A stretch of 60,841 nt of DNA from Eubacteriales bacterium (GCA_045531285.1 JAZSDT010000083.1:1-60841), one strand, 5' to 3'; counted from the first letter of the stretch, positions 12,663-49,730 are shown. Program-made: numbers and translations. The notes: generated by a model not told the origin, from the sequence alone.

Positions 12663-12738
12663 GGGGGTTTAGCTCAGCTGGGAGAGCATCTGCCTTACAA
12701 GCAGAGGGTCACAGGTTCGAGCCCTGTAGTCCCCACCA
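12663..12738 (+). tRNA. tRNA-Val (anticodon UAC), CCA encoded
   Basis: Cloverleaf read by hand: acceptor GGGGGTT/AGTCCCC, D arm GCTCAGCTGGGAGAGC, anticodon loop CTTACAA, T arm ACAGGTTCGAGCCCTGT, 3' ACCA. Confidence 0.95.
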
Positions 12739-21426: not shown

Positions 21427-22299
21427 CTACGGCCTCGCCGTTTTGCATTTTTTTCGGTACTCCCCAGGTGACGTCTTGTATATTCGCATAAAGCATCTGT
21501 AGAAGGTGGAATTGTCATCAAAACCACATTGAGTATATATTTCGGGAATTGTCAGGTCTGTTGAAGCAAGCAGAGATACGGCGGCTTGTATCTGCATTCT
21601 GGTAATATAGCTTTTAGGGCTCTCCCCTGTTGCACAGGTAAATATTTTTCTGAAATAGGACTCACTCATATAGCAAGACTCTGCCATAAGTCTTGTCAAG
21701 GGACGCACTCCGTTTTTCAGCGAAGCCGAAACGTAATTAAGCGCAGGAAGAATGCTCTTGTTCTTTTTATAGTCTACGCTCACACTGTCGTTTTCTCTCT
21801 TATCAAAAGCAAGTCTTTCAAGAAGTTCGGCTGTCTTAAGTACGAGTAAGTCAGCAAGTCTTGTACTTTCGGAGGCTTCCCTAAGAAAAAGCTCGGCAAT
21901 CTCACTTATATTTCTGTGTACAGCTTCATCCTTTGAAAAAACACGGCAGGTATCAAGCTTTTGTGAAAGCTCTATAAAGTATGCACGGTCCAGGCTTACT
22001 CGCAGAGATGACATTGCCGAAACGTCAATGCTGATGAACATCCACAGTGCGTTATCCTTAAGAGCTATATCGTAATGGGGGCAAAAAGGCGGAATGAGCT
22101 GTACGTCGCCTGCGCAATACGGTATCTCTCCCCTGTCCGTATAGCAAATGCCCTCACCCTCCAGACACACGCCAAGCTCCAGTACCTCGTGATAATGGAG
22201 AAATTTCAGCTCTTGCCTCGGCATAGAATACATTGATACCGAATAAAATCCGTTATCAAATCCGCCTACGCCCTCATACAAAACGTTTATATTTTTCAT
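21427..22299 (-). CDS. AraC-family transcriptional regulator
   Basis: C-terminal HTH pair LMAESCYMSESYFRKIFTCATGESPKSY...IPEIYTQCGFDDNSTFYRCFMRIYKTSPGEYR. ATG at 22299 after a GAGGTG RBS (the ORF-track GTG is at 22308). Confidence 0.85.
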   Translation of the reverse strand: MKNINVLYEGVGGFDNGFYSVSMYSMPRQELKFLHYHEVLELGVCLEGEGICYTDRGEIPYCAGDVQLIPPFCPHYDIALKDNALWMFISIDVSAMSSLRVSLDRAYFIELSQKLDTCRVFSKDEAVHRNISEIAELFLREASESTRLADLLVLKTAELLERLAFDKRENDSVSVDYKKNKSILPALNYVSASLKNGVRPLTRLMAESCYMSESYFRKIFTCATGESPKSYITRMQIQAAVSLLASTDLTIPEIYTQCGFDDNSTFYRCFMRIYKTSPGEYRKKCKTARP

Positions 22300-22442
22300 T
22301 CCTACCACCTCTGTAACATACTATACTGTCTTGTAACAAAAAAATCAAGATAAAAAATCAAAAATGCAATATTTTCATCCTTTATGCAATAGACATACGG
22401 TGATATTTTTGATATCATTAAACTTAAAGGAGATGATTTTAA

Positions 22443-24314
22443 ATGGTAAAAAACGTTATAAAAGACATAGAAAACTCACGTATATTCACAAAAGACGAAC
22501 AGCTTTCAATGAAGCTAGAGGGTTCGTTTGAAAAGGCTGTCCGTTTCATCGAGCGTAATCAAATATGCGATGTTGGACTGTGGCAGAAATTTGTAGAGCT
22601 GTTTCGCTGGCACGAGGACGGCTGCGGAGATGCATGGGTCAGCTGGAGAAGTGAATACTGGGGCAAGATGATGCGCAGTGCGGCAATGGTGGTAAAGTAT
22701 ACCAACGATGACGGCATGTACAAAATATTGGAAAACAGCGTAAGAGACCTTTTGACCACTGCCGACAAACACGGCAGAATTTCGGGTTACTCTGTAGAGC
22801 AGGAATTCACACACTGGGATATCTGGGGCAGAAAGTACGTAATGCTCGGTATGTTCTACTTTATGGAGATATGCCGTGACGAAAAGCTCAAAGATGAAAT
22901 GACCTATGCAATCAAGCGTCAGGCTGATTATATGATAGAGCGTATCGGACACGGTAAGCTCGACATAAGAGAGTGCAGTTCAAACTGGGAGGGACTCAAC
23001 TCCTGCTCGGTGTTGGAGCCCATTGTCAGACTGTACAAGCTGACGGGTGAGCAAAAATATTTTGAATTTGCCGAGTATATTATCTCTACAGGCTTTATAC
23101 AGTCTGCGAACATAATAGAGCTTGCATTTGAAGACAAGGTTTCACCTCACGAATATCCCGTCGTAAAGGCATACGAAATGATGTCCTGCTTCGAGGGACT
23201 TTTGCAGTTTTACTACGTTACGGGTATTGAAAAATACAAAACGGCTATTCTCAATTTCGGAAAACGCATTATCAACGGTGAGCTTAGTATAATCGGATGC
23301 AGCGGATGTACTCACGAGCTATTTGACCACACTGCCGTAAGACAGACTCAGACGGACTACGAGGGAGTTATTCAAGAGACCTGTGTAACGGTTACCTGGA
23401 TGAAATTTGCCGCAGCCGTTTTGGAGCTGTCAGGAGACGTAAGCTTTGCCGACTGTATAGAACAGTCCTTCTATAACGCATACGCGGGAAGCTTTAATAC
23501 ACAGAGAATTCCTTCCGTAAGATACCGCGTACCCGACAGGGAGCACATAGTACCTCAGGTACTTCCCTTCGACGCCTACTCACCTCTTGTATCAAACGTA
23601 AGAGGACGTGCTACAGGAGGCTTCAACTACTTCCCTGACGGTACCTTCTACGGATGCTGTGCTTGTATCGGTGGTGCGGGCGCCGGAGTTATTCCTCAGA
23701 TTGCCGTTATGAAAAGCCAAAACGGAATTGTGCTGAATTTCTACGAAAAGGGTATAATAGAAACTAGCGGAATAAAGCTTTGTGTGGATACCGATTATCC
23801 CTACGACGGAAAAATCACCATTGAACTTGAAACGGCTGCGAAAGCCTTTGATATAACTCTGAGAGTGCCTCAATGGTGCGACGGTGCAAGTATCACAGTA
23901 AACGGTCAGTCACAGCCCTGTCACAAGGGATACGTAACTCTTAGCCGTCAGTGGACCGACAAGGACGTCATAGTACTCAATCTGCCAATGGCAGTAAAGC
24001 GTGTTCTTCCTCCCAAAGAAGCTGTAAACTGTGATATCTTTGCAGGGTACACCTACGGACCGCTAGTGCTTGCTGCCGACAAGAGAATAACCGATCCCGA
24101 CGCAATACTGGACGTTGTGGAAGGCACGCAAAAGGCAGTATACTGTCCCGAAATAAGAGAGGCTGAGCTTTGCCTTGAGGTGACACTTGCAAACGGTGAA
24201 AAGGCTCGTCTCATCGACTACGCCTCAGCGGGCAAGACCTGGTCTGAAGAATCCCGTTGCGCTGCTTGGTTAAAAAGGCGGAGAGTCTCCGCAGACAATT
24301 CTCGCCTATCGTAA
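22443..24314 (+). CDS. DUF1680 / GH127-GH146-like glycoside hydrolase (beta-L-arabinofuranosidase-like)
   Basis: 623 aa. QETCVTVTW (E-T-C) and FYGCCACIGG (C-C) resemble the Glu/Cys3 zinc-site and Cys-nucleophile motifs of GH127 HypBA1-type enzymes. The last 12 codons and the stop lie inside a repeat unit. Confidence 0.6.
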   Translation: MVKNVIKDIENSRIFTKDEQLSMKLEGSFEKAVRFIERNQICDVGLWQKFVELFRWHEDGCGDAWVSWRSEYWGKMMRSAAMVVKYTNDDGMYKILENSVRDLLTTADKHGRISGYSVEQEFTHWDIWGRKYVMLGMFYFMEICRDEKLKDEMTYAIKRQADYMIERIGHGKLDIRECSSNWEGLNSCSVLEPIVRLYKLTGEQKYFEFAEYIISTGFIQSANIIELAFEDKVSPHEYPVVKAYEMMSCFEGLLQFYYVTGIEKYKTAILNFGKRIINGELSIIGCSGCTHELFDHTAVRQTQTDYEGVIQETCVTVTWMKFAAAVLELSGDVSFADCIEQSFYNAYAGSFNTQRIPSVRYRVPDREHIVPQVLPFDAYSPLVSNVRGRATGGFNYFPDGTFYGCCACIGGAGAGVIPQIAVMKSQNGIVLNFYEKGIIETSGIKLCVDTDYPYDGKITIELETAAKAFDITLRVPQWCDGASITVNGQSQPCHKGYVTLSRQWTDKDVIVLNLPMAVKRVLPPKEAVNCDIFAGYTYGPLVLAADKRITDPDAILDVVEGTQKAVYCPEIREAELCLEVTLANGEKARLIDYASAGKTWSEESRCAAWLKRRRVSADNSRLS

Positions 24315-24394: not shown

Positions 24395-24423
24395 TTGACA
24401 AAATCAAAAAACGATGCTATAGT
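24395..24423 (+). promoter_or_regulatory. Sigma-A promoter of T-box leader 1
   Basis: TTGACA (24395-24400), 17-nt spacer, TATAGT (24418-24423). Confidence 0.7.
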
Positions 24424-24429
24424 GTATTC

Positions 24430-24705
24430 ATCGAAATATTTAAAGGCTGTGACGAAGACGGTTTTGTCAGGCATTTTACAGAGAGTTGACGTTTGGTGCG
24501 AGTCAATATTTGACCTACAAGGTAACCTATCACTTCCGAGCCGGAATGCTGAACGTATTCAAGTAAGTGTTCCCGTGATTGCTGCGTAAATGCATAGGAA
24601 TTGTTTGATTCCAAGAGTGGCAGGTCTCCTGCAATTTGAGTGGTACCGCGGATGAGTTAATTTCACCCGTCTCAAAGAAAAAGCTTTGAGACGGGTTTAT
24701 TTTTT
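24430..24705 (+). promoter_or_regulatory. T-box riboswitch leader 1, specifier read as AUC (Ile)
   Basis: Stem I with AGAGA bulge and GUUUGGUG distal loop. Specifier loop ...CCU AUC A|CUUC (24529-24531). T-box sequence UUGAGUGGUACCGCGG (about 24636-24651). Terminator CCCGTCTCAAAG/CTTTGAGACGGG (24666-24695) plus T-run. Confidence 0.85.
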
Positions 24706-24722
24706 ACAAGGAGGAACAGAAA

Positions 24723-26987
24723 ATGTCAACAACTTCAAAAACAAAACTTCTGGAGGTAGCGCGCCGAATTCGTGAAATGCGTGAAATCGAAGGAATAAGC
24801 ATTGAAGAAATGGCAGAAAAGACAGAAGTATCTGTCCAGGATTATCTCGAATACGAAGCAGGAAATGCGGATTTCCCCTTCTCCTTTATACACAAATGCT
24901 CACTTGTTTTCGATATTGAAATTACAGATATTCTCGAAGGTAAGAGTGCTAACCTCCGTTCCTATACCATCACACGTAAGGGCGAAGGACAGGACACGGC
25001 AAAGGAAAACGGCATACAGATTCAGAGTCTTGCTCCCAAGTTCAAGGATAAAATAGCTGAGCCGTATTGGGTAAAGTACGAATACGACTCCGAGCTCCAG
25101 GACAAGCCAATAAACGTTACGACACACTCGGGACAGGAATTTGACTACGTGGTGAGCGGACGCCTCAAGATCCAGGTAGGCGACAACATCGAATATCTCA
25201 GCGAAGGCGACAGCATTTACTACAACAGCTCGGAGCCTCACGGCATGATTGCGGTTGACGGTAAGGAGTGTCTCTTTGTCGCAGTAGTACTTCCCGGTGA
25301 AGCAACCGAGGAAACGACTGTCAGAAAGACAATTTCGGCATCGAGTGCAAAATCAGGTCTTGTCAGTGAAAAATTCATCAAATGCGTTGAGGACGAAAAC
25401 GGTTCTCTTGTTTCCATTGACTTTGAAAACGAGGATAAATTCAATTTCGGCTTTGACGTTGTTGATGCAATTGCCAAGAAGGATCCCGGCAAGCTGGCAA
25501 TGATACACATAGACAAAAACAAGGTTGAAAGAAAGTTCACCTTCAACGATATAAAGCGTCATTCAGCTCAGGCGGCAAACTACTTCAAGTCACTTGGCAT
25601 CAAGAAGGGTGACAGAGTAATGCTGGTGCTCAAGCGCCACTATCAGTTCTGGTTTGCCATTGTGGCTCTCCACAAGCTTGGTGCTGTAGCTATCCCTGCT
25701 ACGAATCTGCTTGTAGCTCACGACTTTGATTACCGCTTTAACGCGGCGGGAGTTTCCGCAATCGTCTGCAGCGCCGACGGTCAGATAGCAGAACAGGTAG
25801 ATATTGCTCAGGCGGCAAGCCCCACTCTCAAGACAAAGATACTCGTAGGCGGCAAGAGAGACGGCTGGCACGACTTTGACGAGGAATATTCACTCTTCTC
25901 AACTCACTACTACAGGACCGAAGAAACCGCTTGCGGAGACGATATGATGCTGATGTTCTTCACATCCGGTACAACGGGTTATCCCAAAATTGCGGCTCAT
26001 TCCTACAAATACGCGCTTGGTCACTATCCCACGGCAAAATACTGGCATATGGTAGAGCCTGACGGACTCCACTTTACCATTTCGGACACAGGCTGGGGCA
26101 AGGCTCTCTGGGGCAAGCTCTACGGCCAGTGGCTGTGTGAGGGTGCTGTATTTACATATGACTTCGACCGCTTTGATGCATCGGAGATACTTCCCATGTT
26201 TGCAAAGTACAACATCAAGACCTTCTGTGCTCCGCCCACTATGCTCCGTATGATGATAAAGGAGGACATCTCAAAGTACGACCTTTCATCCGTAAAGCAT
26301 ATGACAACTGCAGGCGAAGCGCTTAATCCCGAGGTTTACTATCAGTTTGAAAAGCTCACGGGACTTCAGATAATGGAGGGCTTTGGTCAGACAGAGCTTA
26401 CTCTCGCCATCGCAAACCTTGTAGGACGTGACCACAAGGTAGGCTCTATGGGACGTCCCGTACCCCTTTATGACGTTGAGATACTTGACTCCGACGGAAA
26501 GCCGGTGCCCAACGGTGAAAACGGAGAAATCTGTGTAAAGATAGGCGACAAGGTTCCTTGCGGTCTCTTCCTTGGTTACTACGGAAACGAGGAAAAGACA
26601 AAGGAGGTCATGCACGACGGTTACTATCATACAGGCGACGTTGCATGGCGCGACGAGGACGGCTTCTTCTGGTACGTTGGAAGAACGGATGACGTTATCA
26701 AATCATCCGGCTACCGTATCGGTCCATTCGAGATAGAAAGCGTAATTATGGAGCTTCCCTACGTTCTGGAGTGCGGTGTATCTGCCGCTCCCGACGAGGT
26801 AAGAGGACAGGTTGTTAAGGCCAGCATCGTGCTTGTCAAGGGCACCGAGCCAACCGAAGAGCTTAAAAAGGAAATTCAGGAGTACGTAAAGAAACACACT
26901 GCTCCCTACAAATATCCCCGTATAGTCGTATTTAAAGATGAGCTTCCCAAGACAATAAGCGGAAAAATTCAAAGAAATAAGCTATAA
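24723..26987 (+). CDS. Fusion protein: XRE-type HTH + cupin domain + AMP-forming medium/short-chain acyl-CoA synthetase
   Basis: 754 aa. N-terminal HTH REIEGISIEEMAEKTEVSVQDYLEYEAG. Cupin HSGQEFDYVVSGRLKIQVGD...GDSIYYNSSEPHGM. Ligase motifs FFTSGTTGYPK, YHTGD, GRTDDVIKSSGYRIGPFEIE, SGKIQR. Confidence 0.85.
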   Translation: MSTTSKTKLLEVARRIREMREIEGISIEEMAEKTEVSVQDYLEYEAGNADFPFSFIHKCSLVFDIEITDILEGKSANLRSYTITRKGEGQDTAKENGIQIQSLAPKFKDKIAEPYWVKYEYDSELQDKPINVTTHSGQEFDYVVSGRLKIQVGDNIEYLSEGDSIYYNSSEPHGMIAVDGKECLFVAVVLPGEATEETTVRKTISASSAKSGLVSEKFIKCVEDENGSLVSIDFENEDKFNFGFDVVDAIAKKDPGKLAMIHIDKNKVERKFTFNDIKRHSAQAANYFKSLGIKKGDRVMLVLKRHYQFWFAIVALHKLGAVAIPATNLLVAHDFDYRFNAAGVSAIVCSADGQIAEQVDIAQAASPTLKTKILVGGKRDGWHDFDEEYSLFSTHYYRTEETACGDDMMLMFFTSGTTGYPKIAAHSYKYALGHYPTAKYWHMVEPDGLHFTISDTGWGKALWGKLYGQWLCEGAVFTYDFDRFDASEILPMFAKYNIKTFCAPPTMLRMMIKEDISKYDLSSVKHMTTAGEALNPEVYYQFEKLTGLQIMEGFGQTELTLAIANLVGRDHKVGSMGRPVPLYDVEILDSDGKPVPNGENGEICVKIGDKVPCGLFLGYYGNEEKTKEVMHDGYYHTGDVAWRDEDGFFWYVGRTDDVIKSSGYRIGPFEIESVIMELPYVLECGVSAAPDEVRGQVVKASIVLVKGTEPTEELKKEIQEYVKKHTAPYKYPRIVVFKDELPKTISGKIQRNKL

Positions 26988-27001
26988 TTTGCAAAAAAAT
27001 A

Positions 27002-27030
27002 TTGACAAACCTCATCTGATATGATATACT
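27002..27030 (+). promoter_or_regulatory. Sigma-A promoter of T-box leader 2
   Basis: TTGACA (27002-27007), 17-nt spacer, TATACT (27025-27030). Confidence 0.7.
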
Positions 27031-27034
27031 TCTT

Positions 27035-27307
27035 ATATTCAAGGAAAGGCTTTGACGAAGAGTATACCAGCACATCTATGCTCAGAGAAACGGCGTTTGG
27101 TGTAAGCCGTAGATAGACGTTGGTGTTTGTAGCTTCCGAGCCGAGAGGAAGAAAACGTTTGCCAGTAGACCCTCTCCGTGATTGCTGCGTAAATGCATAG
27201 GAATTGATTGATTCCAAGAGAGGCGGTTAGTCCGCAACTTGAGTGGTACCGCGGGCGTTGTTATTATGCTCGTCTCAAGGATCATATCTTTGGGACGAGC
27301 TTTTATT
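27035..27307 (+). promoter_or_regulatory. T-box riboswitch leader 2, specifier read as GUA (Val)
   Basis: Stem I with CAGAGA bulge and GUUUGGUG distal loop. Specifier loop ...GUUU GUA G|CUUC (27129-27131). T-box CUUGAGUGGUACCGCGG. Terminator GCTCGTCTCAA../..TTGGGACGAGC (27268-27300) plus TTTTATT. Confidence 0.85.
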
Positions 27308-27333
27308 GTCCCGATACAAAACCGGAGGAAATA

Positions 27334-29616
27334 ATGCAACAGATTACAGGTCTTGATTTTAAAATCAAGGAAATGGCAGGGCGTATACGAGAGCTTCGTG
27401 AAATCGTAGGACTTACTACCGAAGAAATGTCAAAGAAAACGGACGTATCCGTACAGGAGTACATAAGCTGTGAAAAGGGAGAAAGCGACCTTACCTTCGC
27501 TTTTATCTACCGTTGCGCTCTTGCACTCAACGTTGACGTTACGGATATTATCGAAGGTCACAGCCCTAAGCTTAAAACCTATACCGTAACAAGAAACGGG
27601 CTTGGTCAGAAAATCGAGCAGGCTCACGGTATGACGTATTACAGTCTTGCTTCCGAGTTCAAAAACAGAATTGCGGAGCCTCTTTACGTACGTGCCGCAT
27701 ACAATGACGATAACAGCGATATTGAGCTTACCACACACGCCGGTCAGGAATGTGACATTATCATTGAAGGTCACCTCAAGGTACAGGTTGGTGAGCACAC
27801 CGAGGTTCTCGGCCCGGGTGACAGTATCTACTATAACAGCTCGGAACCTCACGGTATGATTGCCGTAAACGGTCACGACTGTCTTTTCTACGCAATAGTT
27901 CTTAATCCCACAGGTGAATCCATTCCCGAGCTCATCCCCCATCCCACTGTCACTACCGAAAGACAGCTTCCCCGTGACACAGAGGATAGAGTATACCGCA
28001 ATTTCATTGATACCGAAGAGGATGAAAACGGCACACCTACTTCCATAAAATTCAAGAATACCGAAAAATTCAACTTTGCATTCGACATTGTTGATGCCAT
28101 TGCCGACAAGTCGCCCGACAAACTGGCAATGCTTCACATAGATGTAAACAAGAACGAAAGACGCTTCACTTTCAAGGATATGAAGAAGATGTCTGCTCAG
28201 GCGGCAAACTACTTCAAGTCACTTGGTATCAAGAAGGGCGACAGAGTTATGCTCGTTCTCAAGCGTCACTATCAGTTCTGGATAGCAATGCTTGGTCTTC
28301 ACAAGCTGGGTGCTATTGCGGTGCTTGCGACAAATCAGCTTCAGGAGCATGATTTTGAATATCGCTTTAATGCCGCGGGAATTTCTGCAATCCTCTGCAC
28401 AGCAGACGGAGATACAGCGCATCAGGTTGAGCTGGCAATTGAAAACTCCCCCACAATGAAAACCAAGATAATAGTTGGAAAGGACCGTGAAGGATGGCGC
28501 AACTTTGACGAGGAGCGTTCACTCTTCTCCACACATTTCAACAGAACAGAGGATACTCCCTGCGGAGACGACCTGATGTTGATGTTCTTCACGTCGGGAA
28601 CAACGGGTTATCCCAAGATTGCGGCACACTCCTGCAAGTATGCACTCGGTCATTTCCATACGGCGAAATACTGGCACACAGTTGACCCCGACGGACTTCA
28701 CTTTACCATTTCCGACACGGGATGGGCTAAGTCCATGTGGGGCAAGTTCTACGGACAGTGGGTATGCGAGGCGGCAACCTTCGTTTATGACTTTGACCGC
28801 TTTGACGCTGCCGATATTCTGCCAATGTTTGCAAAATATCAGATAACAACCTTCTGTGCTCCTCCCACAATGCTTCGTATGATGATAAAAGAGGACATTT
28901 CAAAATACGACCTCTCTTCCGTTAAGCATATGACAACAGCAGGTGAAGCACTGAACCCCGAAGTATATAACCAATTTGAAAGGCTGACAGGACTTCAGAT
29001 ACTTGAAGGCTTCGGTCAGACAGAAAGCACTATGATAATAGGCAACCTTGTAGGAACGTCACACAAGGTCGGCTCTATGGGTAAGCCTGCTCCCATTTAC
29101 GACGTGGAGCTTCTTGATGCAGACGGTAATCCCGTCAAGGACGGTGAAAACGGAGAAATCTGCGTAAACGTTAAGAACGGCGCTCCTTGCGGTCTGTTCA
29201 CGGGTTATTATCTCAACGAGGAAAAAACACGCGAGGTATGGCACGACGGATATTACCACACAGGTGACGTTGCATGGCGTGATGAGGACGGCTTCTACTG
29301 GTACGTCAGCCGTGTTGACGACGTTATCAAGTCATCGGGCTACCGTATCGGTCCTTTCGAAATAGAAAGCGTAATAATGGAGCTTCCCTACGTTCTGGAG
29401 TGCGGTGTATCTGCGGCTCCCGACGAGGTAAGAGGACAGGTAGTCAAGGCGGGCATCGTGCTTGTTAGGGGAACCGAGCCTACTGAAGAGCTTAAAAAGG
29501 AGATACAGAACTACGTTAAGAGCAGAACTGCTCCCTACAAGTATCCCAGAATCGTAGTGTTCAAGGATTCTCTTCCCAAGACTGTCAGCGGAAAGATCCA
29601 GAGGAACAAATTATAA
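27334..29616 (+). CDS. Fusion protein paralog: XRE-type HTH + cupin + AMP-forming acyl-CoA synthetase
   Basis: 760 aa from the ATG at 27334 (GGAGG RBS; the ORF-track start at 27208 lies inside the riboswitch). Same architecture and motifs as 24723..26987. The ligase part is highly similar. Confidence 0.85.
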   Translation: MQQITGLDFKIKEMAGRIRELREIVGLTTEEMSKKTDVSVQEYISCEKGESDLTFAFIYRCALALNVDVTDIIEGHSPKLKTYTVTRNGLGQKIEQAHGMTYYSLASEFKNRIAEPLYVRAAYNDDNSDIELTTHAGQECDIIIEGHLKVQVGEHTEVLGPGDSIYYNSSEPHGMIAVNGHDCLFYAIVLNPTGESIPELIPHPTVTTERQLPRDTEDRVYRNFIDTEEDENGTPTSIKFKNTEKFNFAFDIVDAIADKSPDKLAMLHIDVNKNERRFTFKDMKKMSAQAANYFKSLGIKKGDRVMLVLKRHYQFWIAMLGLHKLGAIAVLATNQLQEHDFEYRFNAAGISAILCTADGDTAHQVELAIENSPTMKTKIIVGKDREGWRNFDEERSLFSTHFNRTEDTPCGDDLMLMFFTSGTTGYPKIAAHSCKYALGHFHTAKYWHTVDPDGLHFTISDTGWAKSMWGKFYGQWVCEAATFVYDFDRFDAADILPMFAKYQITTFCAPPTMLRMMIKEDISKYDLSSVKHMTTAGEALNPEVYNQFERLTGLQILEGFGQTESTMIIGNLVGTSHKVGSMGKPAPIYDVELLDADGNPVKDGENGEICVNVKNGAPCGLFTGYYLNEEKTREVWHDGYYHTGDVAWRDEDGFYWYVSRVDDVIKSSGYRIGPFEIESVIMELPYVLECGVSAAPDEVRGQVVKAGIVLVRGTEPTEELKKEIQNYVKSRTAPYKYPRIVVFKDSLPKTVSGKIQRNKL

Positions 29617-30278
29617 TGAAATATAAAAGAATAACGCTTCTTTCAGGTCATTACGGAAGCGGAAAGACAAATATAGCGGTCAACATGGCATTTGAGCTGA
29701 AGCAACAGGTTGAAAGCGTTGTGGTTGCCGATATGGATATAGTCAATCCCTATTTTCGTACAAAGGACAGTCAAAAGGAGTTTGATGAGGCAGGAATAAA
29801 GCTTATTGCATCCGCCTTTGCAGGCTCTAACGTAGACCTGCCCTCTCTTCCCCAAGAGATGTACTCACTGACAGATGACCGCACAAGCCACTGCATACTT
29901 GATATAGGTGGTGATGAACGCGGAGCGTTGGTGCTTGGAAGATATGCGCCTATGATAAAGGAAGAAAACGATTACGAAATGCTTTTCGTTTTCAATGCCT
30001 GCCGTCCCTTGACACCGGATGCCGACTCGGCACTGGAGGTTATGAGAGAAATTGAATGGGCAGGAAAGATACCCTTCACAGGTATCATAAACAACTCAAA
30101 CATCGGAGAGGAAACAACTCCCGAGACAGTTTTGTCATCAATGGAAAAAGCAAACCAGCTGAGTCAAAAAGCCGGTATTCCATTGGTTATGACCTCGGTT
30201 CATTGGAAGATATTTCCCTCCCTTGAAAATAAAATACCAAATCTATTCCCATTAAAACTTCAAACAAAAATCATGTAA
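29616..30278 (+). CDS. P-loop NTPase (SIMIBI class; CooC/MinD/G3E-like ATP/GTP-binding protein)
   Basis: Walker A LLSGHYGSGKTN, Walker-B-like ILDIGGD. 220 aa. Start overlaps the ligase stop (TAATG). Confidence 0.6.
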   Translation: MKYKRITLLSGHYGSGKTNIAVNMAFELKQQVESVVVADMDIVNPYFRTKDSQKEFDEAGIKLIASAFAGSNVDLPSLPQEMYSLTDDRTSHCILDIGGDERGALVLGRYAPMIKEENDYEMLFVFNACRPLTPDADSALEVMREIEWAGKIPFTGIINNSNIGEETTPETVLSSMEKANQLSQKAGIPLVMTSVHWKIFPSLENKIPNLFPLKLQTKIM

Positions 30279-30290
30279 GGAGTGTAAAAA

Positions 30291-30497
30291 ATGCCTAAGC
30301 TTACTTTTAAAACAGACAACTGTAAGGGCTGTGGACTTTGCGTAGATGCTTGTCCCAAGGGCGTTCTTGCAATTGCCAAGGAAAAAATCAACAAAAAAGG
30401 TCATCACCCTGTTGAAGCGGTGAAAGAGGACGCTTGTATCGGTTGTACCTTCTGTGCTACCATGTGTCCCGACTGTATAATCAAGATTGAGAAATAG
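30291..30497 (+). CDS. 2-oxoacid:ferredoxin oxidoreductase delta subunit (2x[4Fe-4S] ferredoxin)
   Basis: CKGCGLCVDACP and CIGCTFCATMCP cluster motifs. 68 aa. Confidence 0.85.
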   Translation: MPKLTFKTDNCKGCGLCVDACPKGVLAIAKEKINKKGHHPVEAVKEDACIGCTFCATMCPDCIIKIEK

Positions 30498-30512
30498 AAA
30501 GGTCGTGAAATA

Positions 30513-31580
30513 ATGGCAGATAAAGTATTGATGAAAGGTAACGAAGCCATTGCCGAAGCCGCAATCGTTGCAGGCTGCCGCCACTACTTCGGTTACCCTA
30601 TTACTCCCCAAACTGAAATTGCCGCTTACATGGCTAAGAGAATGCCTAAAATCGGCGGTTGCTTCCTTCAGGCTGAAAGCGAAATTGCCGCTATCAACAT
30701 GGTATACGGCGTTGCTTCCTGCGGTAAGCGTGTTATGACATCATCCTCAAGCCCCGGAATCTCACTTAAGGGCGAAGGACTTTCCTACCTTGCAGGTGCG
30801 GACCTTCCCTCCCTTGTTGTAAACGTACAGAGAGGCGGCCCCGGTCTGGGCGGTATTCAGCCCTCGCAGTCAGACTACTTCCAGGCTACAAAGGGCGGAG
30901 CACACGGTGATTTCCACATGATAGTTCTTGCTCCCGCTTCCGTTCAGGAAATGGCTGACCTCACAGTTCACGGCTTTGACCTTGCAGACAAGTACCGTAT
31001 GACTTCCATGATACTTGCCGACGGTACAATGGGTCAGATGATGGAGCCTGTTTCTCTTGACCTTGACGTTAAGCCCATGCCCGAAAAGCCTTGGGCTACA
31101 GTGGGAACAAAGCTCGAAAGATTCCACAATATCACAAACTCACTTTCTCTTGTTCCCGAAGAGCTTGAACAGCTCAACTTCAAGAGATACGAGCGTTATG
31201 CTGAAATAGAAAAGAATGAAGTTATGTACGAAGAGTATATGATGGAGGATGCAGAGATCTGTATCGCCGCATTCGGCATTGCTTCACGTGTTGCCAAGAA
31301 CGCTATCGTTGAGGCTCGTGCTCAGGGTATCAAGGTAGGTCTTATACGTCCTATCACCCTTTGGCCCTTCCCCAAGGCTCCCTTCCTCAAGGCGACCGAA
31401 AAGGTACATTCATTTATTTCTGTTGAGCTTTCTATGGGTCAGATGATAGAGGACGTACGTCTTGCTACAGAGTGCCGCCGTCCCGTGACACTTGTAAACC
31501 GTGCAGGCGGTATGATCCCCTCACCCGAACAGATCCTCGAAGCAATTAAAACTGCTCACAAAAACGGAGGTGCAAAATAA
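30513..31580 (+). CDS. 2-oxoacid:ferredoxin oxidoreductase alpha subunit (VorB-like, ketoisovalerate-type)
   Basis: KVLMKGNEAIAEAAIVAGCRHYFGYPITPQTEI is the N-terminal signature of the POR/VOR/KOR alpha family. 355 aa. Confidence 0.85.
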   Translation: MADKVLMKGNEAIAEAAIVAGCRHYFGYPITPQTEIAAYMAKRMPKIGGCFLQAESEIAAINMVYGVASCGKRVMTSSSSPGISLKGEGLSYLAGADLPSLVVNVQRGGPGLGGIQPSQSDYFQATKGGAHGDFHMIVLAPASVQEMADLTVHGFDLADKYRMTSMILADGTMGQMMEPVSLDLDVKPMPEKPWATVGTKLERFHNITNSLSLVPEELEQLNFKRYERYAEIEKNEVMYEEYMMEDAEICIAAFGIASRVAKNAIVEARAQGIKVGLIRPITLWPFPKAPFLKATEKVHSFISVELSMGQMIEDVRLATECRRPVTLVNRAGGMIPSPEQILEAIKTAHKNGGAK

Positions 31581-32347
31581 TGGTAGTATTTGACAAACCC
31601 CATGCACTTGCCGACCTTCCCATGCACTACTGCCCCGGCTGTACACACGGTATTATTCACCGTCTTGTTGCCGAGTGTCTTGATGAACTTGGAATTGAAG
31701 GAAGAACCATCGGTATCGCACCCGTTGGTTGCTCGGTTATGGCATATAATTATTTCAACTGCGATATGATTGAAGCGGCTCACGGACGTGCTCCTGCCAT
31801 TGCTACAGGTGTTAAGCGTGCTGACCCCGAAAATCACATAGTATTTACATATCAGGGCGACGGTGACCTTGCCTCTATTGGTATGGCAGAAACCGTACAC
31901 GCAGCAGCGCGTAACGAGAACATCACCGTTATCTTTGTAAACAATGCAATCTACGGTATGACTGGCGGTCAGATGGCTCCTACCTCACTTCCCGGTCAGG
32001 TTACTCAGACCTCTCCCTACGGACGTGACACCAACCACTGCGGATTCCCAATCAAGGTATGCGAAATGCTCTCTGAGCTTGACGGACCTGAATATCTGGA
32101 AAGAGTTGCCGTGAACAACGTGAAGAATGTTAAGGCTGCTAAGAAGGCTATTAAGAAGGCGTTTGAAAACCAGATAAACAATAAGGGCTTCTCACTCATC
32201 GAGGTTATTTCAAGCTGTCCTACAAACTGGGGTATGACACCTCAAAAGGCACTTGAATGGGTTGCAGATAAAATGATTCCCTACTATCCTCTCGGTGTAT
32301 ATAAGGATAGAACAGCGGGCATTGTAAAGGGGGATAAAAATGACTAA
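31580..32347 (+). CDS. 2-oxoacid:ferredoxin oxidoreductase beta subunit (TPP-binding)
   Basis: YCPGCTHG, GDGD...NNAIYGMTGGQ TPP/Mg motif. Start overlaps the alpha stop. Confidence 0.85.
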   Translation: MVVFDKPHALADLPMHYCPGCTHGIIHRLVAECLDELGIEGRTIGIAPVGCSVMAYNYFNCDMIEAAHGRAPAIATGVKRADPENHIVFTYQGDGDLASIGMAETVHAAARNENITVIFVNNAIYGMTGGQMAPTSLPGQVTQTSPYGRDTNHCGFPIKVCEMLSELDGPEYLERVAVNNVKNVKAAKKAIKKAFENQINNKGFSLIEVISSCPTNWGMTPQKALEWVADKMIPYYPLGVYKDRTAGIVKGDKND

Positions 32348-32870
32348 TCAGTACGTTTTTGCAGGATTTGGCGGTCAGGGTATCCTTTTCGCAGGTAAGC
32401 TCCTTGCATACAAGGGTCTGACAGAGGACAAGCAGGTTTCATGGCTTCCCTCCTACGGTCCCGAAATGAGAGGCGGTACGGCAAGCTGTTCCGTTATCAT
32501 CAGCGACACACCTGTAGGTTCTCCCATTGTTTCCAATCCCGACATACTCATCGCTATGAACCTTCCTTCTCTTGACAAGTACGAGAATCTTGTAAAGGCA
32601 GGCGGTATGATATTCTACGATTCTTCTCTCATTGAAAGAGAAGTTAAAAGAGATGACGTAAAGGCGTTCCCCATTCCCGCAACAAAGCTTGCAGACGAGA
32701 ACGGAACTCCCACACTTGCAAACATGATAATCATGGGTAAGGTGCTCAAGGAGACAGGCGACTTCACAGACGAAGGCGTTCTTGCAGCTCTCAAGAAGGT
32801 AATTTCCGCTAAGCGTGCGGATATGCTTGACGTAAACCTTAACGCTATGAAACTTGGACGCGATTATTAA
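32340..32870 (+). CDS. 2-oxoacid:ferredoxin oxidoreductase gamma subunit
   Basis: [17 protein letters not shown]...[11 protein letters not shown] is typical of gamma subunits. 8-nt overlap with beta. Confidence 0.85.
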
Positions 32871-32886
32871 TTGGAGGCGAATTTAA

Positions 32887-33951
32887 ATGGAAATTTCAAT
32901 CACTCGCGCAAAGGAGCTCAAGGCTAAGCCTGACAGTTCCACACTTGGCTTCGGTAAAATATTCACCGACCATATGTTCATAATGGACTATTCGCAGGAG
33001 AAAGGCTGGCACGATGCAAGAATCGTTCCCTTCGGCCCCTTCCCCATTCATCCCGCATCAACCGTTCTTCACTACGGCTCGGAAATCTTTGAAGGACTCA
33101 AGGCATACAGAATCGCCGACGGCTCGGTACAGCTCTTCAGACCTATGGAGAACATCCGCCGTCTTAACAGCTCGGCTGAGCGTCTGTGTCTCCCCGAGAT
33201 TCCCGAGGACCTTGCTCTTGAGGTACTCACAAAGTTCGTTGAATTTGAAAAGGACTGGACACCTGCTGCAGAGGGTACTTCTCTCTACATCCGTCCCTTC
33301 CTCTTCGGTAACGACGAGACACTTGGTGTACACGCAGTACACAATGCAACCTTTATGATAATCCTCTCTCCTGTAGGAAGCTACTATAAGGAAGGTATTA
33401 ACCCTGTTAAGATCATGATTGAAGCTGATGACGTAAGAGCTGTAAGAGGCGGTACAGGTTACACCAAGTGCGGCGGTAACTATGCGGCAAGTAACAGAGC
33501 AGGTCAGAAGGCTGAAGCTCAGGGATACGCTCAGGTACTCTGGCTTGACGGTGTTGAAAGAAAGTATATTGAAGAAGTTGGCGCCATGAACGTTATGTTC
33601 AAAATCAACGGCGAGATCGTTACTCCCATGCTTTCAGGCTCTATCCTTCCCGGTATCACAAGAAAGTCTTGCATTGAAGTTCTCAAGTCCGAGGGCTACA
33701 AGGTAAGCGAGAGACTTCTCAGCGTTGATGAGCTTGCAGAGGCTCTTGAAAACGGAACTCTTGAAGAGGCTTGGGGAACAGGTACAGCAGCAGTTGTATC
33801 GCCCATTGGCGAGCTTGCTTACAAGGGCAAGAAGTTCATCATCAACGAAGGTAAGATCGGCGAGGTCACTCAGCATCTTTACGATACTCTCACAGGCATC
33901 CAGTGGGGTAAGATCGAAGACAAGTTCAACTGGACCTACAAGCTTAATTAA
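32887..33951 (+). CDS. ilvE: Branched-chain amino acid aminotransferase (fold type IV)
   Basis: 354 aa. FGKIFTDHMF, LHYGSEIFEGLKAYR, GGTGYTKCGGNYAAS, ILPGITR and GTAAVVSPI motifs of IlvE type II. Confidence 0.9.
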   Translation: MEISITRAKELKAKPDSSTLGFGKIFTDHMFIMDYSQEKGWHDARIVPFGPFPIHPASTVLHYGSEIFEGLKAYRIADGSVQLFRPMENIRRLNSSAERLCLPEIPEDLALEVLTKFVEFEKDWTPAAEGTSLYIRPFLFGNDETLGVHAVHNATFMIILSPVGSYYKEGINPVKIMIEADDVRAVRGGTGYTKCGGNYAASNRAGQKAEAQGYAQVLWLDGVERKYIEEVGAMNVMFKINGEIVTPMLSGSILPGITRKSCIEVLKSEGYKVSERLLSVDELAEALENGTLEEAWGTGTAAVVSPIGELAYKGKKFIINEGKIGEVTQHLYDTLTGIQWGKIEDKFNWTYKLN

Positions 33952-36043: not shown

Positions 36044-36324
36044 TCATCAAAAATAGAACGAAATGCATTGAAGGAATTATCGCTTTTCCCTATTCCGTCA
36101 AAGAGAGCCGAGTTTGGTGTGAGTCGGTACGGTAAGCTAAAGTGAGTCTCGTTCCGGAGCAGGGTCGCCCAACGTGCTATGCACTGCGTAAGCGATCACG
36201 GTTTGTCCCGTTACCTTGACAGAAAGCTTGATTGAGCTTTACAGAGTGACTGCATAAGCAGTAATTCGGGGTGGTACCGCGAAGTATTTTCGTCCCCTTA
36301 GCCGAAAGGCTGAGGGGTTTTTTG
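36044..36324 (+). promoter_or_regulatory. T-box riboswitch leader 3, specifier read as CUC (Leu)
   Basis: Stem I with AAGAGAG bulge and GUUUGGUG distal loop. Specifier loop ...GAGU CUC G|UUCC (36148-36150). T-box AUUCGGGGUGGUACCGCGAAG. Terminator CCCCTTAGCC-GAAA-GGCTGAGGGG (36294-36317) plus TTTTTT. Confidence 0.85.
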
Positions 36325-36354
36325 TTGCATAAATTCAGAAAGGGAAAAAGAAAA

Positions 36355-37743
36355 ATGAAAAAAATCCAAATCACAGACATCACACTTAAAAAACTGGCGC
36401 AAGAGCGTAGCGTTAACCTTCTTTTCCGTGACAAGACCGCTATCGCCGCATGTGCTGACAGGCTTGGAGTTGATGCTATTGAACTTGCACCCATAAAGAA
36501 CGTGCGTGAGGACACTATCATTTATAAGACAATATCCCAAAATATCACCAACTGTACCGTAGCTATCCCCGTAGGATTTACTGCTCAGGACGTTGCGACA
36601 GCATGGGAATGCGTAAAGGACGCCATTCACCCCAGACTTCAAATAGAGCTTCCCATATCCACTGTTCAAATGGAATATACCTATCATCTTAAGGCTGACA
36701 AAATGATTGCCAAGATAGGTGAGCTGGTAGAGGAAGCAGTAAAATACTGCAATGACGTTGAATTCGTTGCTCTTGACGCTACAAGAGCGGACACAGACTT
36801 CCTTGTTGCCGCAGTAAAAGAAGCAGAAACAAAGGGCGCAAATATCATAACGGTTTGCGATGATGCGGGAGTTTCTCTTCCGGAAGAAATTGCAGCACTT
36901 GTAAAGCTTGTAAAAGATGCTGTTGATATCTACGTATACGCTCAGGTATCCGACAAGCTCAGTATGGCTGTTTCCTCTGCAGTATCCGCAATCAACGCAG
37001 GTGCAGAAGGTCTCAAGTGTGCTATGGCAGGCAATGAAGCTCTTTTGGTAGGTGCTTTCTCTGACACTGTAAGAGCAAGAGGAGATGCTATCGACGTTTC
37101 TACGTCTCTTAAGGACACCAAAATTCACGCAAGCATCGATGACCTGCTTACTTCTATAAAGCACGAAGCTTATACCTCGGAAGAACAGGTAAGCGAAAAG
37201 AAAAACATTCTTCTCGATAAGGACAGCACCATATCACAGGTATCTCAGGCGGCTCAGGTATTGGGCTATGACCTTTCGGACAGCGACTGCGGAAACGTGC
37301 ACAAGGCACTTCTTCAGGTATGCGAAAAGAAGGGCTCTGTAGGATCAAAGGAGTTTGAAGCACTTATTGCAAGCTCTGCAATGCAGGCTCCCTCCACATA
37401 TCACCTTGAGGGCTACACTACAAATTCTTCAAATCTTACACCCTCTATGTCTCAAGTAACCCTCAGATGCGGTGACGAGATACTTTCAGGCGTAAGCACA
37501 GGTGACGGTCCCATCGATTCAGCCTTCCGCGCTATCGAGCAGAGTATAGGTTATCACTACGAGCTTGACGACTTCCAGGTACAGGCGGTTACAGAGGGCA
37601 AGGAGGCTCTCGGCTCTGCACTGGTAAGACTCCGTAACAACGGCAAGCTCTATTCAGGTAACGGCATCTCCACAGATATTGTTGCCGCAAGTATAAGAGC
37701 ATACATCAACGCACTTAACAAGATCGTATTCGAGGAGGAATAA
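36355..37743 (+). CDS. 2-isopropylmalate/citramalate-synthase-like protein with degenerate active site but intact LeuA-type C-terminal regulatory domain
   Basis: Collinear with LeuA over the whole length, but DTTLRDGEQ is DITLKKLAQ and the HxH metal motif (H-C-H-D-D) is AQVSD. The C-terminal STGDGPIDSAFRAIEQSI...ALVRLRNNGKLYSGNGISTDIVAASIRAYINALNK is well conserved. ATG at 36355 lies downstream of the riboswitch terminator. Confidence 0.75.
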   Translation: MKKIQITDITLKKLAQERSVNLLFRDKTAIAACADRLGVDAIELAPIKNVREDTIIYKTISQNITNCTVAIPVGFTAQDVATAWECVKDAIHPRLQIELPISTVQMEYTYHLKADKMIAKIGELVEEAVKYCNDVEFVALDATRADTDFLVAAVKEAETKGANIITVCDDAGVSLPEEIAALVKLVKDAVDIYVYAQVSDKLSMAVSSAVSAINAGAEGLKCAMAGNEALLVGAFSDTVRARGDAIDVSTSLKDTKIHASIDDLLTSIKHEAYTSEEQVSEKKNILLDKDSTISQVSQAAQVLGYDLSDSDCGNVHKALLQVCEKKGSVGSKEFEALIASSAMQAPSTYHLEGYTTNSSNLTPSMSQVTLRCGDEILSGVSTGDGPIDSAFRAIEQSIGYHYELDDFQVQAVTEGKEALGSALVRLRNNGKLYSGNGISTDIVAASIRAYINALNKIVFEEE

Positions 37744-37744
37744 A

Positions 37745-48011: not shown

Positions 48012-49730
48012 TTATTTCACTTCTGCCTTTATTTTTCCAAGCTCCTCTTCCTCAAGCTGACGATACGCCACCTTTCCGACAAGGGTCTTGGGCAGTGACT
48101 CACGGAACTCAATATCGTAGGGTACGGCATACCTTGCAATATTCTTTCGGCAGTGGTCGAGAAGTATCTTTTTGTTTTCTTCGCTGGGTTTAACACCGGG
48201 CTTGAGCATTACAAATGCCTTTACCTTCTGTATCTTCAGGGAATCGGGAACGCCTATTATACAGCTCATTTGTACAAGCTCGTGGGCATCGAGAATGTTC
48301 TCAAGCTGTGAAGGATAAACGTTGTATCCGCTTGTTACTATCATTCTCTTTATTCTCTGCTTGAAATAAACGAAGCCGTCCTCGTCCATATATCCAAGGT
48401 CACCTGTATGTACCCATATTTTTCCATCCTCGTGCCGGCGGAGAGTAGAGGCGGTCTCGTCGGGATGATTTACGTATTCCATCATAACGGTAGGACCTGA
48501 AATACATATTTCACCCTCTGTTCCGTAATCAACCTCATTGACCGTTCCGTGTTCAACGATAGTGTAGTAGGTATCGGGGAAGGGCTGACCTATGCTGCCC
48601 TCCTTAGCAAGATGCAAGGGAGTCAAACAGCTGGCTGTAACACATTCTGTAGTGCCGTAGCCCTCTCGTATCTGAACCTTGGAATTATGCTCTGCAAGGA
48701 ATTTATCAAACTTCTTTTTAAGCTCTATCGACAGCGAATCGCCGCCGCTGAACACACCCTTAAGATATGACAGGTCGGCGCCGTCCATACAATTCTGACG
48801 GAGAAGCGCCTCGTAGAGTGTGGGTACTCCCGCGATAAAATTACACTGACACTTGATAACAAGCTTTGCATAGCTTTCGGGAGTAAATCTGGGAACAAGA
48901 ATGCATCTTCCTCCGTTGCCCAGCATCGAGTGTATGCTTACACCTAGGCCGAAGCCGTGGAAAATGGGCATTGCGGCAAGCATCTTATCACCGGGTGAAA
49001 AGATTGGATTTGTAGCGATGATCTGAGATGCAAGGGCATTGAAATTAAGGTTTGAAAGAAGGATTCCCTTGTTTGTGCCCGTTGTTCCTCCGCTGTAGAG
49101 TATAACGGCAGGGTCGGATGCCTTCTTGACACTCTTATAGTTACCCTTCCACTCACTGCCCTTTTTCATAAAGTCATTCCATTTGATGATGGGAGCGTCC
49201 TTGGGAATCTTGGGTATCTTTCTGCCCTGTGTAAGAGCATAGCCAAGCTTTAGTCTCGAGGGGAGCGCATCGTAAATACGTGCAATAATAAGATTGGGGA
49301 GGTCTACCCTCTCTCGTATATTCTCGAATTTTTTATAAAACTGGTCTAAAGTTATAGCAAACAGACTGTTTGAGTCCTTGAGATAAAATTCAATTTCATT
49401 CTCACTTGACAGCGGATGTATCATATTCGCTATACCACCTGCCAGGTTTACTGCATAAAACATTATAATACCCTGAGGGCAATTGGGCATACAGATAGTT
49501 ACCTTGTCGCCCTCTCTGAGCCCCTGTGCCTTGAGAGCCTTTGCACACGTATCAACACTGTTAATAAATCTCTTGTAGGTTGTAGGCTCACTCATAAAGT
49601 CATAGGCTACGTAGTCGGGATACTTTGTGGCAACGTCACTGACGAGATCGTACATTGAACCGCTGTGATATTCAAGATGTGCGGGTACGTCTCCGTAATT
49701 GTCAAGCCAAGGGGTTCTGGTTTCTTTCAT
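48012..49730 (-). CDS. AMP-forming long/medium-chain fatty-acid--CoA ligase
   Basis: LYSGGTTGTNKGILLSN, GYGTTE, HTGDLGYMDEDGFVYFKQRIKRMIVTSGYNVYPSQLE, VGKVAYR. 572 aa. Confidence 0.85.
   Translation of the reverse strand: MKETRTPWLDNYGDVPAHLEYHSGSMYDLVSDVATKYPDYVAYDFMSEPTTYKRFINSVDTCAKALKAQGLREGDKVTICMPNCPQGIIMFYAVNLAGGIANMIHPLSSENEIEFYLKDSNSLFAITLDQFYKKFENIRERVDLPNLIIARIYDALPSRLKLGYALTQGRKIPKIPKDAPIIKWNDFMKKGSEWKGNYKSVKKASDPAVILYSGGTTGTNKGILLSNLNFNALASQIIATNPIFSPGDKMLAAMPIFHGFGLGVSIHSMLGNGGRCILVPRFTPESYAKLVIKCQCNFIAGVPTLYEALLRQNCMDGADLSYLKGVFSGGDSLSIELKKKFDKFLAEHNSKVQIREGYGTTECVTASCLTPLHLAKEGSIGQPFPDTYYTIVEHGTVNEVDYGTEGEICISGPTVMMEYVNHPDETASTLRRHEDGKIWVHTGDLGYMDEDGFVYFKQRIKRMIVTSGYNVYPSQLENILDAHELVQMSCIIGVPDSLKIQKVKAFVMLKPGVKPSEENKKILLDHCRKNIARYAVPYDIEFRESLPKTLVGKVAYRQLEEEELGKIKAEVK

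Follow-up and report, generated by a model that had tools for sequence, protein, structure and literature searches.

A tandem pair of T-box-controlled acyl-CoA ligase genes with Ile and Val specifiers and a mosaic of gene conversion in gut Clostridia

The contig JAZSDT010000083.1 (positions 1-60841) of an Eubacteriales bacterium (GCA_045531285.1), a stretch of 60,841 nucleotides (nt) that was analysed as a whole and is called the window below, carries at positions 24395-29616 two tandem units, A and B, each consisting of a promoter-like site, a T-box leader and a gene for an acyl-CoA ligase fused to an N-terminal helix-turn-helix (HTH) and cupin module. The two units are probably an old tandem pair of T-box-gated genes that heads an operon, with shared parts that have been converted recurrently; the gene content suggests that the operon serves the salvage of branched volatile acids to branched-chain amino acids.

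Organization of the two tandem units

All features of the two units, and the genes behind them, lie on the plus strand. Unit A begins with a promoter-like site at 24395-24423 (TTGACA-17-TATAGT) and unit B with one at 27002-27030 (TTGACA-17-TATACT), both of sigma-70 type, TG-extended and matching the consensus at 11 of 12 positions. T-box leader A follows at 24440-24677 and leader B at 27043-27280, each matching the Rfam family RF00230 over its full length (1-219). Leader A scores 94.6 bits and passes the curated gathering score of 93 bits. Intrinsic terminators lie at 24665-24696 in leader A (13 bp stem and T-run), as the alternative to the antiterminator, and at 27268-27300 in leader B (15 bp stem and T-run). 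The ligase A gene (24723-26987) encodes 754 amino acids (aa) and is predicted to specify a 2-methylbutyrate-CoA ligase, and the ligase B gene (27334-29616) encodes 760 aa, predicted to form an isobutyrate-CoA ligase. The start of ligase B is the ATG at 27334, placed behind a GGAGG sequence, and not the TTG at 27208 where the mechanically called open reading frame begins.

The Pfam domains HTH_19/HTH_3, Cupin_2, AMP-binding and AMP-binding_C are found alike in both ligases, with E-values of 5e-63 for AMP-binding and 1e-20 for AMP-binding_C. In ligase A they cover aa 12-74 (XRE-type HTH), 134-188 (cupin), 250-620 (AMP-binding) and 670-748 (AMP-binding_C). A preliminary description of this DNA, made from the sequence alone, had assigned the same promoter, leader and fusion-gene layout to 24395-26987 and 27002-29616; the promoter sites, Rfam matches, terminators and Pfam domains agree with it, and they support the view that the whole unit of promoter, leader and gene was duplicated in tandem.

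Compared with the Protein Data Bank (PDB), the N-terminal module gave only weak HTH matches (SinR, DdrO) and a match to 1Y9Q at E 0.009. An AlphaFold2 model of aa 1-235, built from a 17-sequence alignment, was confident for the HTH part alone (mean pLDDT 48.6, with the cupin part below 50). A search for operator-like inverted repeats near either promoter gave none that was convincing.

T-box leaders and their specifiers

A T-box turns its genes on in response to uncharged cognate tRNA. Both leaders of the window show the features of Stem I, namely a K-turn base, the AGAGA and GGUGNRA distal motifs, and a specifier-loop codon immediately 5' of the 3' helix strand. In leader A this codon is AUC (Ile) at 24529-24531, followed by A 24532 and the CUUC strand of the Stem I base helix, and in leader B it is GUA (Val) at 27129-27131, followed by G 27132 and again the CUUC strand. 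The T-box bulge reads UGGU in both (24641-24644 in leader A and 27244-27247 in leader B), and in the Rfam alignments of both leaders the 3' strand of the antiterminator is overlapped by the 5' strand of the terminator. The window also contains a tRNA-Val(UAC) gene at 12663-12738, cognate to the GUA of leader B, with discriminator A73 and an encoded CCA; the UGGU bulge is complementary to such an A73-CCA acceptor end and thus fits this tRNA.

A consensus structure computed with RNAalifold from 34 leaders of types A and B recovered Stems I, II and III and the terminator, with compensatory changes in 31 of 58 pairs, numerous among them those of Stem I. The T-box sequence AGUGGUACCGCG was unchanged in 33 of these 34 leaders, the B leader of locus L033 carrying AGTGGTACCACG. 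When the specifiers of orthologous leaders were called by a search anchored on the T-box sequence, ATC was found in all 76 A-type leaders with a recognisable T-box and GTA in 62 of 65 B-type leaders; one of the three that were not called is apparently GTC, which is likewise a Val codon. The difference in specifier (Ile vs Val) claimed earlier is borne out by these counts and by the identical register of the two codons, and the reading of both leaders as T-boxes with an Ile/Val pair of specifiers is well supported by their sequences.

Mosaic identity between the units of the window

Units A and B share 69.5% of their nucleotides and 69.3% of their amino acids overall. Measured in segments of 60 nt, identity ranges from 0.42-0.57 in Stem I and the linker, with the minimum in the linker, to a peak of 0.97 at 26754-26813, and the first 235 aa of the ligases are 48% identical. 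The plot along the units, spanning 0.42-0.97, is a mosaic rather than uniform, and the ligase domains are alike while the Stem I/specifier region and the HTH-cupin domains are more diverged, as had been judged by eye. Identity at synonymous codons stays near a baseline of about 50% over most of the gene and rises to 25 of 29 codons at aa 663-692.

Two blocks stand out. The first, in the leaders, pairs 24573-24617 with 27176-27220 over 45 nt with one mismatch, exactly as described before, and reaches from Stem IIA/B to Stem III. The second lies near the 3' ends of the genes, where a 63-nt block with one mismatch had been noticed. The block is real, with 29379-29441 pairing with 26750-26812, but its A-side coordinates had been placed 11 nt off, so that 26761-26823 set against 29379-29441 gives 53 mismatches in 63 positions. 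The longest stretch with no more than one mismatch is 65 nt (26748-26812 vs 29377-29441) and forms the core of a conversion tract in the C-terminal subdomain of the ligase, 26691-26872 in A and 29320-29501 in B, with 15 mismatches in 182 nt. In a maximal-segment, mismatch-tolerant test on the polymorphic sites of the ligase domain, 26703-26871 matched at 92 of 106 sites against a background of 0.67 (p ~0.001), and a second tract, 26735-26811, matched at 41 of 43 sites (p ~0.005).

Related loci and the age of the duplication

Relatives were collected by a scan of one genome per species. Relatives of ligase A, confirmed by tblastn, were present at no fewer than 590 places in species-representative genomes, and the best 80 of these at least 590 loci were compared. 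The 80 loci come from metagenome-assembled genomes of herbivore and human gut, recorded as Clostridia, Eubacteriales, Acutalibacteraceae, Oscillospiraceae and Ruminococcus, with a few Lachnospiraceae, Christensenellaceae and Erysipelotrichaceae. An exact-sequence look-up of ligase A in public assemblies returned no record.

An A-type gene followed by a B-type gene occurs in 67 of the 80 loci, with both copies complete in 57. In the remaining 13 the contig mostly ends too early to judge, and five to seven are truly single-copy. Protein identity is 72-98% between orthologs and 64-70% between A and B in every genome, and nucleotide identity in the N-terminal module is 0.72-0.89 within a type among the closest relatives vs 0.54-0.60 between types. 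The duplication is an ancient one, older than the divergence of the sampled species-level genomes, which bear several family names. The preliminary description had held that anciently separate lineages would speak against its reading of duplication followed by homogenisation. For the diverged parts the copies are indeed such lineages, in at least 58 species-level genomes, and the case for conversion is strengthened rather than refuted by this, since old paralogs that are each other's nearest relatives in some segments require it.

Single-copy loci differ among themselves. In L034, L036, L047, L052 and L076 an A-type gene with an ATC leader stands before the same downstream genes; an origin of these genes as deletion chimeras of A and B was considered and rejected, as they are A-type throughout. 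The only mosaic single-copy ligase (L062:2828-5092) has an A-type N-terminal module and an ATC leader, and mixes A and B states at the type-diagnostic columns 435, 436, 474-478 and 745; recombination between A and B could have produced it. Locus L074 (3254-7826) is a variant that lacks the second switch: its A and B genes are 4 nt apart, without a B leader, and no T-box was found in the 750 nt before A, which contain another AMP-binding gene.

Gene conversion between the ligase genes

Comparisons of A with B in one genome are called own-genome here, and those of A in one genome with B in another are called cross-genome. By divergence alone since an old duplication, an A gene would be equally far from its own B and from the B genes of other genomes. 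In the ligase domain, own-genome nucleotide identity exceeds cross-genome identity by 0.05-0.12, against 0.00-0.05, mostly 0.01-0.03, in the HTH, cupin and linker regions. Several ligase segments show a cross-genome A-B identity equal to that of A with A and of B with B, so that the distinction between A and B has been lost there.

Nearest-neighbour counts were made in 58 genomes, with the own paralog ranked among 115 sequences. It was the nearest sequence in 27 genomes at aa 631-720, in 16 at aa 481-545 and in 6 at aa 241-340, and in none for the HTH, the cupin, the linker, aa 441-480 and aa 546-630. Identity matrices cluster by type in some segments and by genome in others, and the alignment contains variants specific to one genome and common to both of its paralogs (for example in L002, L003, L008 and L017). 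Runs of matching polymorphic sites in the ligase domain, tested by permutation, reached p <= 0.001 in 14 of the 58 genomes, with tracts mostly in aa 280-330, 480-550 and 625-735.

In the core of the window's own tract, the A gene is 0.97 identical to the B gene beside it, 0.95 to the B gene of L001, the closest relative, and 0.89 to its own ortholog, the A gene of L001. This points to B as the donor and A as the recipient of a C-terminal tract of about 170 nt, transferred once the lineage had separated from that of the closest sampled species. Own-genome identity over the same core reaches 0.98 in L002 and 1.00 in L003, which are separate events.

Gene conversion between the ligases is real and recurrent, and it has taken place within the chromosome, independently in many lineages across the clade. 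The earlier suggestion that the catalytic region is partly homogenised finds its support in the shared variants and in the step from 0 to 27 of 58 genomes in the nearest-neighbour counts, and this comparative evidence far exceeds that of the window alone. The permutation tests for conversion are significant in 14 of the genomes and, for the tract of the window, in their mismatch-tolerant form.

Homogenised and protected parts of leaders and ligases

The leaders were compared in the same way in 59 genomes. Own-genome and cross-genome A-B identities do not differ over Stem I, the specifier and Stem II, nor over the T-box sequence and the terminator. Only at 24581-24630, which comprises Stem IIA/B, Stem III and the 5' side of the antiterminator, is own-genome identity higher, by 0.07-0.15, and there A-A, B-B and cross-genome A-B identities are alike. 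In L021 and L045 the Stem III hairpins are wholly identical between the paralogs, yet different between the genomes. The 45-nt leader block is therefore in part conserved sequence, with a cross-genome identity of 0.7-0.8, and in part homogenised (+0.07 to +0.15), and the mid-leader is homogenised while Stem I with the specifier, and the terminator, remain distinct.

Fifteen residues are diagnostic of the type, being at least 90% conserved within a type and different between the types. Thirteen of them are in the HTH-cupin module, and only two, G459A and G474A, in the 514 aa of the ligase part. Residue 459 is Gly in 77 of 77 A sequences and Ala in 59 of 59 B sequences, and is the only fully diagnostic residue of the ligase. 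By a looser measure, type-separating ligase columns cluster at aa 435-478, 559-582 and 606-617, with a further one at 745, and are absent from aa 281-340, 481-540 and 641-740; these clusters and gaps are the unconverted and converted segments of the nearest-neighbour counts.

One such conversion-resistant island, aa 435-478 of ligase A (26025-26156), surrounds Trp463 and includes Gly459 (codon 26097-26099), Leu462 and Gly474, and its equivalent in ligase B (28654-28785) includes Ala465 (codon 28726-28728). Residue 462 is Leu in A and mostly Met in B, and residues 459 and 462 flank W463. The closest solved structure is MacsMa of Methanosarcina acetivorans (PDB 3ETC), which matches aa 237-752 of ligase A with an E-value of 2.5e-182. 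With the numbering offset of 23 fixed by seven residues named in PMC10455477, W463 of ligase A and W469 of ligase B align with chain index 282 of 3ETC, that is, MacsMa Trp259. This residue was reported as critical for acyl binding, and 2-methylbutyrate as the preferred substrate of MacsMa (PMC10455477). MacsMa has Gly at the position of residue 459, like type A, and the position of Trp414 of Acs is occupied by Gly in the motif GFGQTE. A change from Gly to Ala beside a pocket residue would fit a substrate one carbon shorter.

Taken along the whole unit, the parts kept separate are Stem I with the specifier and Stem II, the terminator, the HTH-cupin module and linker, aa 435-478, 559-582 and 606-617 of the ligase, and the extreme C-terminus. 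The homogenised parts are Stem IIA/B, Stem III, the 5' half of the antiterminator, and ligase aa ~260-430, 481-545 and 631-720.

The downstream operon and its proposed function

Six genes, all recognised with Pfam and listed as co-transcribed with ligase B, follow at 29616-33951. They encode a P-loop protein of CbiA/ParA type (29616-30278), a 2x[4Fe-4S] ferredoxin (30291-30497), the alpha (30513-31580), beta (31580-32347) and gamma (32340-32870) subunits of a 2-oxoacid:ferredoxin oxidoreductase of the VOR type, and a branched-chain aminotransferase (BCAT; 32887-33951). The alpha subunit exceeds the cutoff of the VorB model NF005507 (536 bits, cutoff 399) and the aminotransferase that of the BCAT model NF009897 (482 bits, cutoff 307), and the beta and gamma subunits are below the equivalog cutoffs. 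Related loci with enough downstream sequence have kept this gene set, except that BCAT was not found in a few and precedes the P-loop gene, instead of coming last, in about nine. The -35 element of promoter B begins 14 nt past the stop codon of gene A, and 26987-27002 contains no terminator, so that the VOR and BCAT genes are reached from promoter A only by transcription through the Val T-box.

The start of the P-loop NTPase gene overlaps the stop codon of ligase B by 1 nt. The protein is similar to CbiA, ParA and NUBPL, with a weak match to the Fe-S carrier Mrp, and was found in every related locus that extends so far; a role in maturing the Fe-S oxidoreductase is possible.

A route from acid to acyl-CoA, 2-oxo acid and amino acid, gated by tRNA, is the most likely function of the locus. 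Leader A would read uncharged tRNA-Ile through its AUC and release transcription of ligase A, and leader B would read uncharged tRNA-Val through its GUA and release ligase B together with the genes for the P-loop protein, the ferredoxin, VOR and BCAT. Ligase A would then make 2-methylbutyryl-CoA and ligase B isobutyryl-CoA, the VOR-type oxidoreductase would reductively carboxylate these acyl-CoAs to 2-oxo acids, and the aminotransferase would convert the latter to Ile and Val. This salvage reading draws on the VorB and BCAT models, the likeness of the ligases to MbcS and MacsMa, rumen physiology and T-box logic taken together. MbcS of S. aureus activates 2-methylbutyrate and isobutyrate (PMC10026030), and rumen bacteria were described as forming Ile from 2-methylbutyrate and Val from isobutyrate (Robinson and Allison, 1969; Allison and Peel, 1971, both as cited in PMC7356843).

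Alternative explanations

Several observations count against the picture of a converted, Ile/Val-gated salvage locus. Leader B, with 81.2 bits, fails the RF00230 gathering score, its full-length match having an E-value of 4.9e-18 in a local search. A strict perfect-run test of the Sawyer type is marginal for the window pair (p 0.02-0.05), and codon bias accounts for part of the own-genome excess of synonymous identity. Most of the comparison genomes are metagenome-assembled, so that assembly error could contribute; the pattern recurs across the assemblies of many projects. The best NCBIfam model for the ligases is MbcS, and their scores of 437 and 431 bits, below its equivalog cutoff of 850, make them relatives of MbcS and not equivalogs. 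Finally, the VOR and BCAT genes stand behind the Val T-box only, so that Ile limitation alone would induce ligase A and, on paper, not the enzymes needed with it.

As far as the window alone is concerned, the mosaic is compatible with a recent tandem duplication in which the specifier and the N-terminal domain diverged fast and the ligases are alike, without conversion, for want of time to diverge, and the weak strict run test agrees with such a history. It is made highly improbable by the related loci, where the A and B genes of at least 58 genomes form orthologous lineages of their own, where no A sequence has a B sequence as its nearest neighbour in the N-terminal module and the two do not cluster by genome in it, and where the highly similar tracts differ between genomes in both position and sequence. 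It is also quite improbable that the mosaic arose, again without conversion, from purifying selection of uneven strength combined with a common codon usage and GC content, by which the two paralogs of one genome would resemble each other at silent sites. The conserved ANL motifs are encoded in the most similar segments, the 45-nt leader block is already fairly alike across genomes, and in the N-terminal module, which is unconverted, codon bias by itself yields a synonymous own-minus-cross excess of +0.10 to +0.13. This excess, however, is +0.26 in the C-domain, about twice that baseline, and at the amino-acid level own-genome identity exceeds cross-genome identity with p = 0.0005 in five of seven ligase regions, a level not reached in the N-terminal module; shared codon usage is therefore not the explanation. 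Selection on the motifs would lift cross-genome identity equally, whereas the shared variants are contiguous and genome-specific, and at aa 631-720 the own paralog beats every ortholog, those of close relatives included, in nearly half of the genomes.

With conversion of an old pair retained, the specificity and the role of the pair can be questioned too. Next to no credence can be given to a leader B specified by a codon other than Val, by which the pair would cease to be Ile/Val. The candidate is an overlapping UGU (Cys), one base upstream of GUA within UUUGUAGCUUC. It was rejected because the order of codon, single base and helix up to the CUUC strand is the same in leader B as in leader A for GUA, because GUA is retained in nearly all B-type leaders (with one more Val codon apparently among the rest), and because UGGU pairs with a discriminator A73, as in the tRNA-Val of the window; bacterial tRNA-Cys carries U73. 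A role of the ligases outside amino-acid synthesis is rather unlikely. They might supply branched acyl-CoA primers for membrane fatty acids, as does S. aureus MbcS, the best-matching named family (PMC10026030), or the operon might work oxidatively and turn amino acids into acids, VOR-type enzymes being reversible. Activation by uncharged tRNA fits the supply of Ile and Val, not their degradation, and AMP-forming ligases drive the formation of acyl-CoA, which is unneeded in the oxidative direction. The ligases moreover share one conserved operon with the VOR subunits and BCAT, and the Gly/Ala difference beside the pocket Trp tracks the Ile/Val specifier perfectly.

The salvage of branched acids to Ile and Val is therefore preferred here. 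A more far-reaching version is conceivable, though doubtful at present: the operon might hold the as yet unassigned genes behind the classical isoacid pathway of the rumen in gut Clostridia, with one tRNA-gated ligase per acid, conversion having erased all differences between the ligases except those that set the substrate, and the HTH-cupin module might be a second, protein-level sensor that makes the enzyme a specific regulator. If this were true, Gly459/Ala and a few neighbours near the pocket Trp would be a natural map of specificity for C5 vs C4 branched acyl groups.

Other features of the window

Upstream of unit A, at 21427-24314, a minus-strand open reading frame was read from its translation as cupin plus AraC-type HTH. 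The same interval also encodes a protein of 623 aa that weakly matches aceric acid hydrolase, and of the related loci only the closest, L001, has this protein conserved upstream. A further AMP-forming acyl-CoA ligase, similar to FadD and below the cutoffs, is encoded on the minus strand at 48012-49730, and with it the window contains four ligase genes of the AMP-forming superfamily.

A third T-box at 36059-36300 (102.8 bits) has a specifier that reads CUC-G (Leu), and its leader is unrelated to the mid-leader block of A and B. Behind it, in the interval 36271-40198, are a divergent LeuA-like gene (best NCBIfam model 2-isopropylmalate synthase, below cutoff) and, at 37745-40198, a xylose-isomerase-like TIM barrel fused to an AMP-binding ligase.

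Comparison with known systems and significance

Duplication of T-boxes with a change of specifier is a described mode of evolution (Wels et al., 2008, PMC2494555), and gene conversion between paralogs is also known already. The leaders described here are like those T-boxes in being attenuating leaders with Stem I and specifier, Stems II and III, a UGGN bulge and a terminator, duplicated together with their gene and given a new specificity. They differ in that the regulated genes are acyl-CoA ligases heading a VOR/BCAT operon, and not tRNA synthetases, classical biosynthesis genes or transporters, and in that the mid-leaders, unlike the specifier arm, are kept alike by conversion. No paper combining 'T-box riboswitch' and 'gene conversion' was found in the literature searched. 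A direct description of the operon, or of T-box control of acyl-CoA ligases or VOR, was not found there either, which shows only that none turned up in that search.

Concerted evolution that spares selected differences is known from the bacterial tufA and tufB genes and from the L and M opsins of primates with their spectral-tuning sites. The ligase pair resembles these in its homogenisation by tracts, from which the sites of functional difference escape; it differs from them in preserving islands of riboswitch and of protein side by side, and in the independent recurrence of the process across dozens of species.

With MacsMa (3ETC) and MbcS the ligases share a full-length alignment of the ligase part, the pocket Trp and the Gly that replaces the Trp of Acs. 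What sets them apart is the XRE-HTH and cupin module of about 240 aa fused to their N-termini, and the existence of two paralogs that differ at Gly459/Ala. PuuR is a one-component regulator made of an XRE-type HTH and a cupin. The module of the ligases follows regulators of the 1Y9Q type in the order of HTH_3/HTH_19 and Cupin_2, with a weak sequence match to 1Y9Q, and departs from these and from PuuR in being fused to an enzyme. What is new is the combination, in which sensor-fused ligases gated by Ile and Val T-boxes head a VOR/BCAT operon and carry a conversion mosaic that spares the specificity determinants of both RNA and protein.

It has been known since the 1960s that fibre-degrading gut bacteria need isobutyrate and 2-methylbutyrate and convert them to valine and isoleucine. 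The operon agrees with the carboxylation of isoacids in the rumen in its herbivore gut habitat and in its predicted enzymes, which match the chemistry of activation, 2-oxoacid synthase and transaminase. Work on the rumen process was physiology without genes, whereas here a gene cluster with amino-acid-specific RNA control is known from genes alone. Two entry enzymes, each switched by the matching uncharged tRNA, would provide a concrete and testable gene set for isoacid physiology. The pair also offers an unusually clean natural experiment, in which exchange has been repeated and only the codon arm of the RNA, the sensor domain and a few pocket residues stay apart. Since only these specificity-bearing pieces are kept separate, the pattern of conversion points to the residues that should be mutated.

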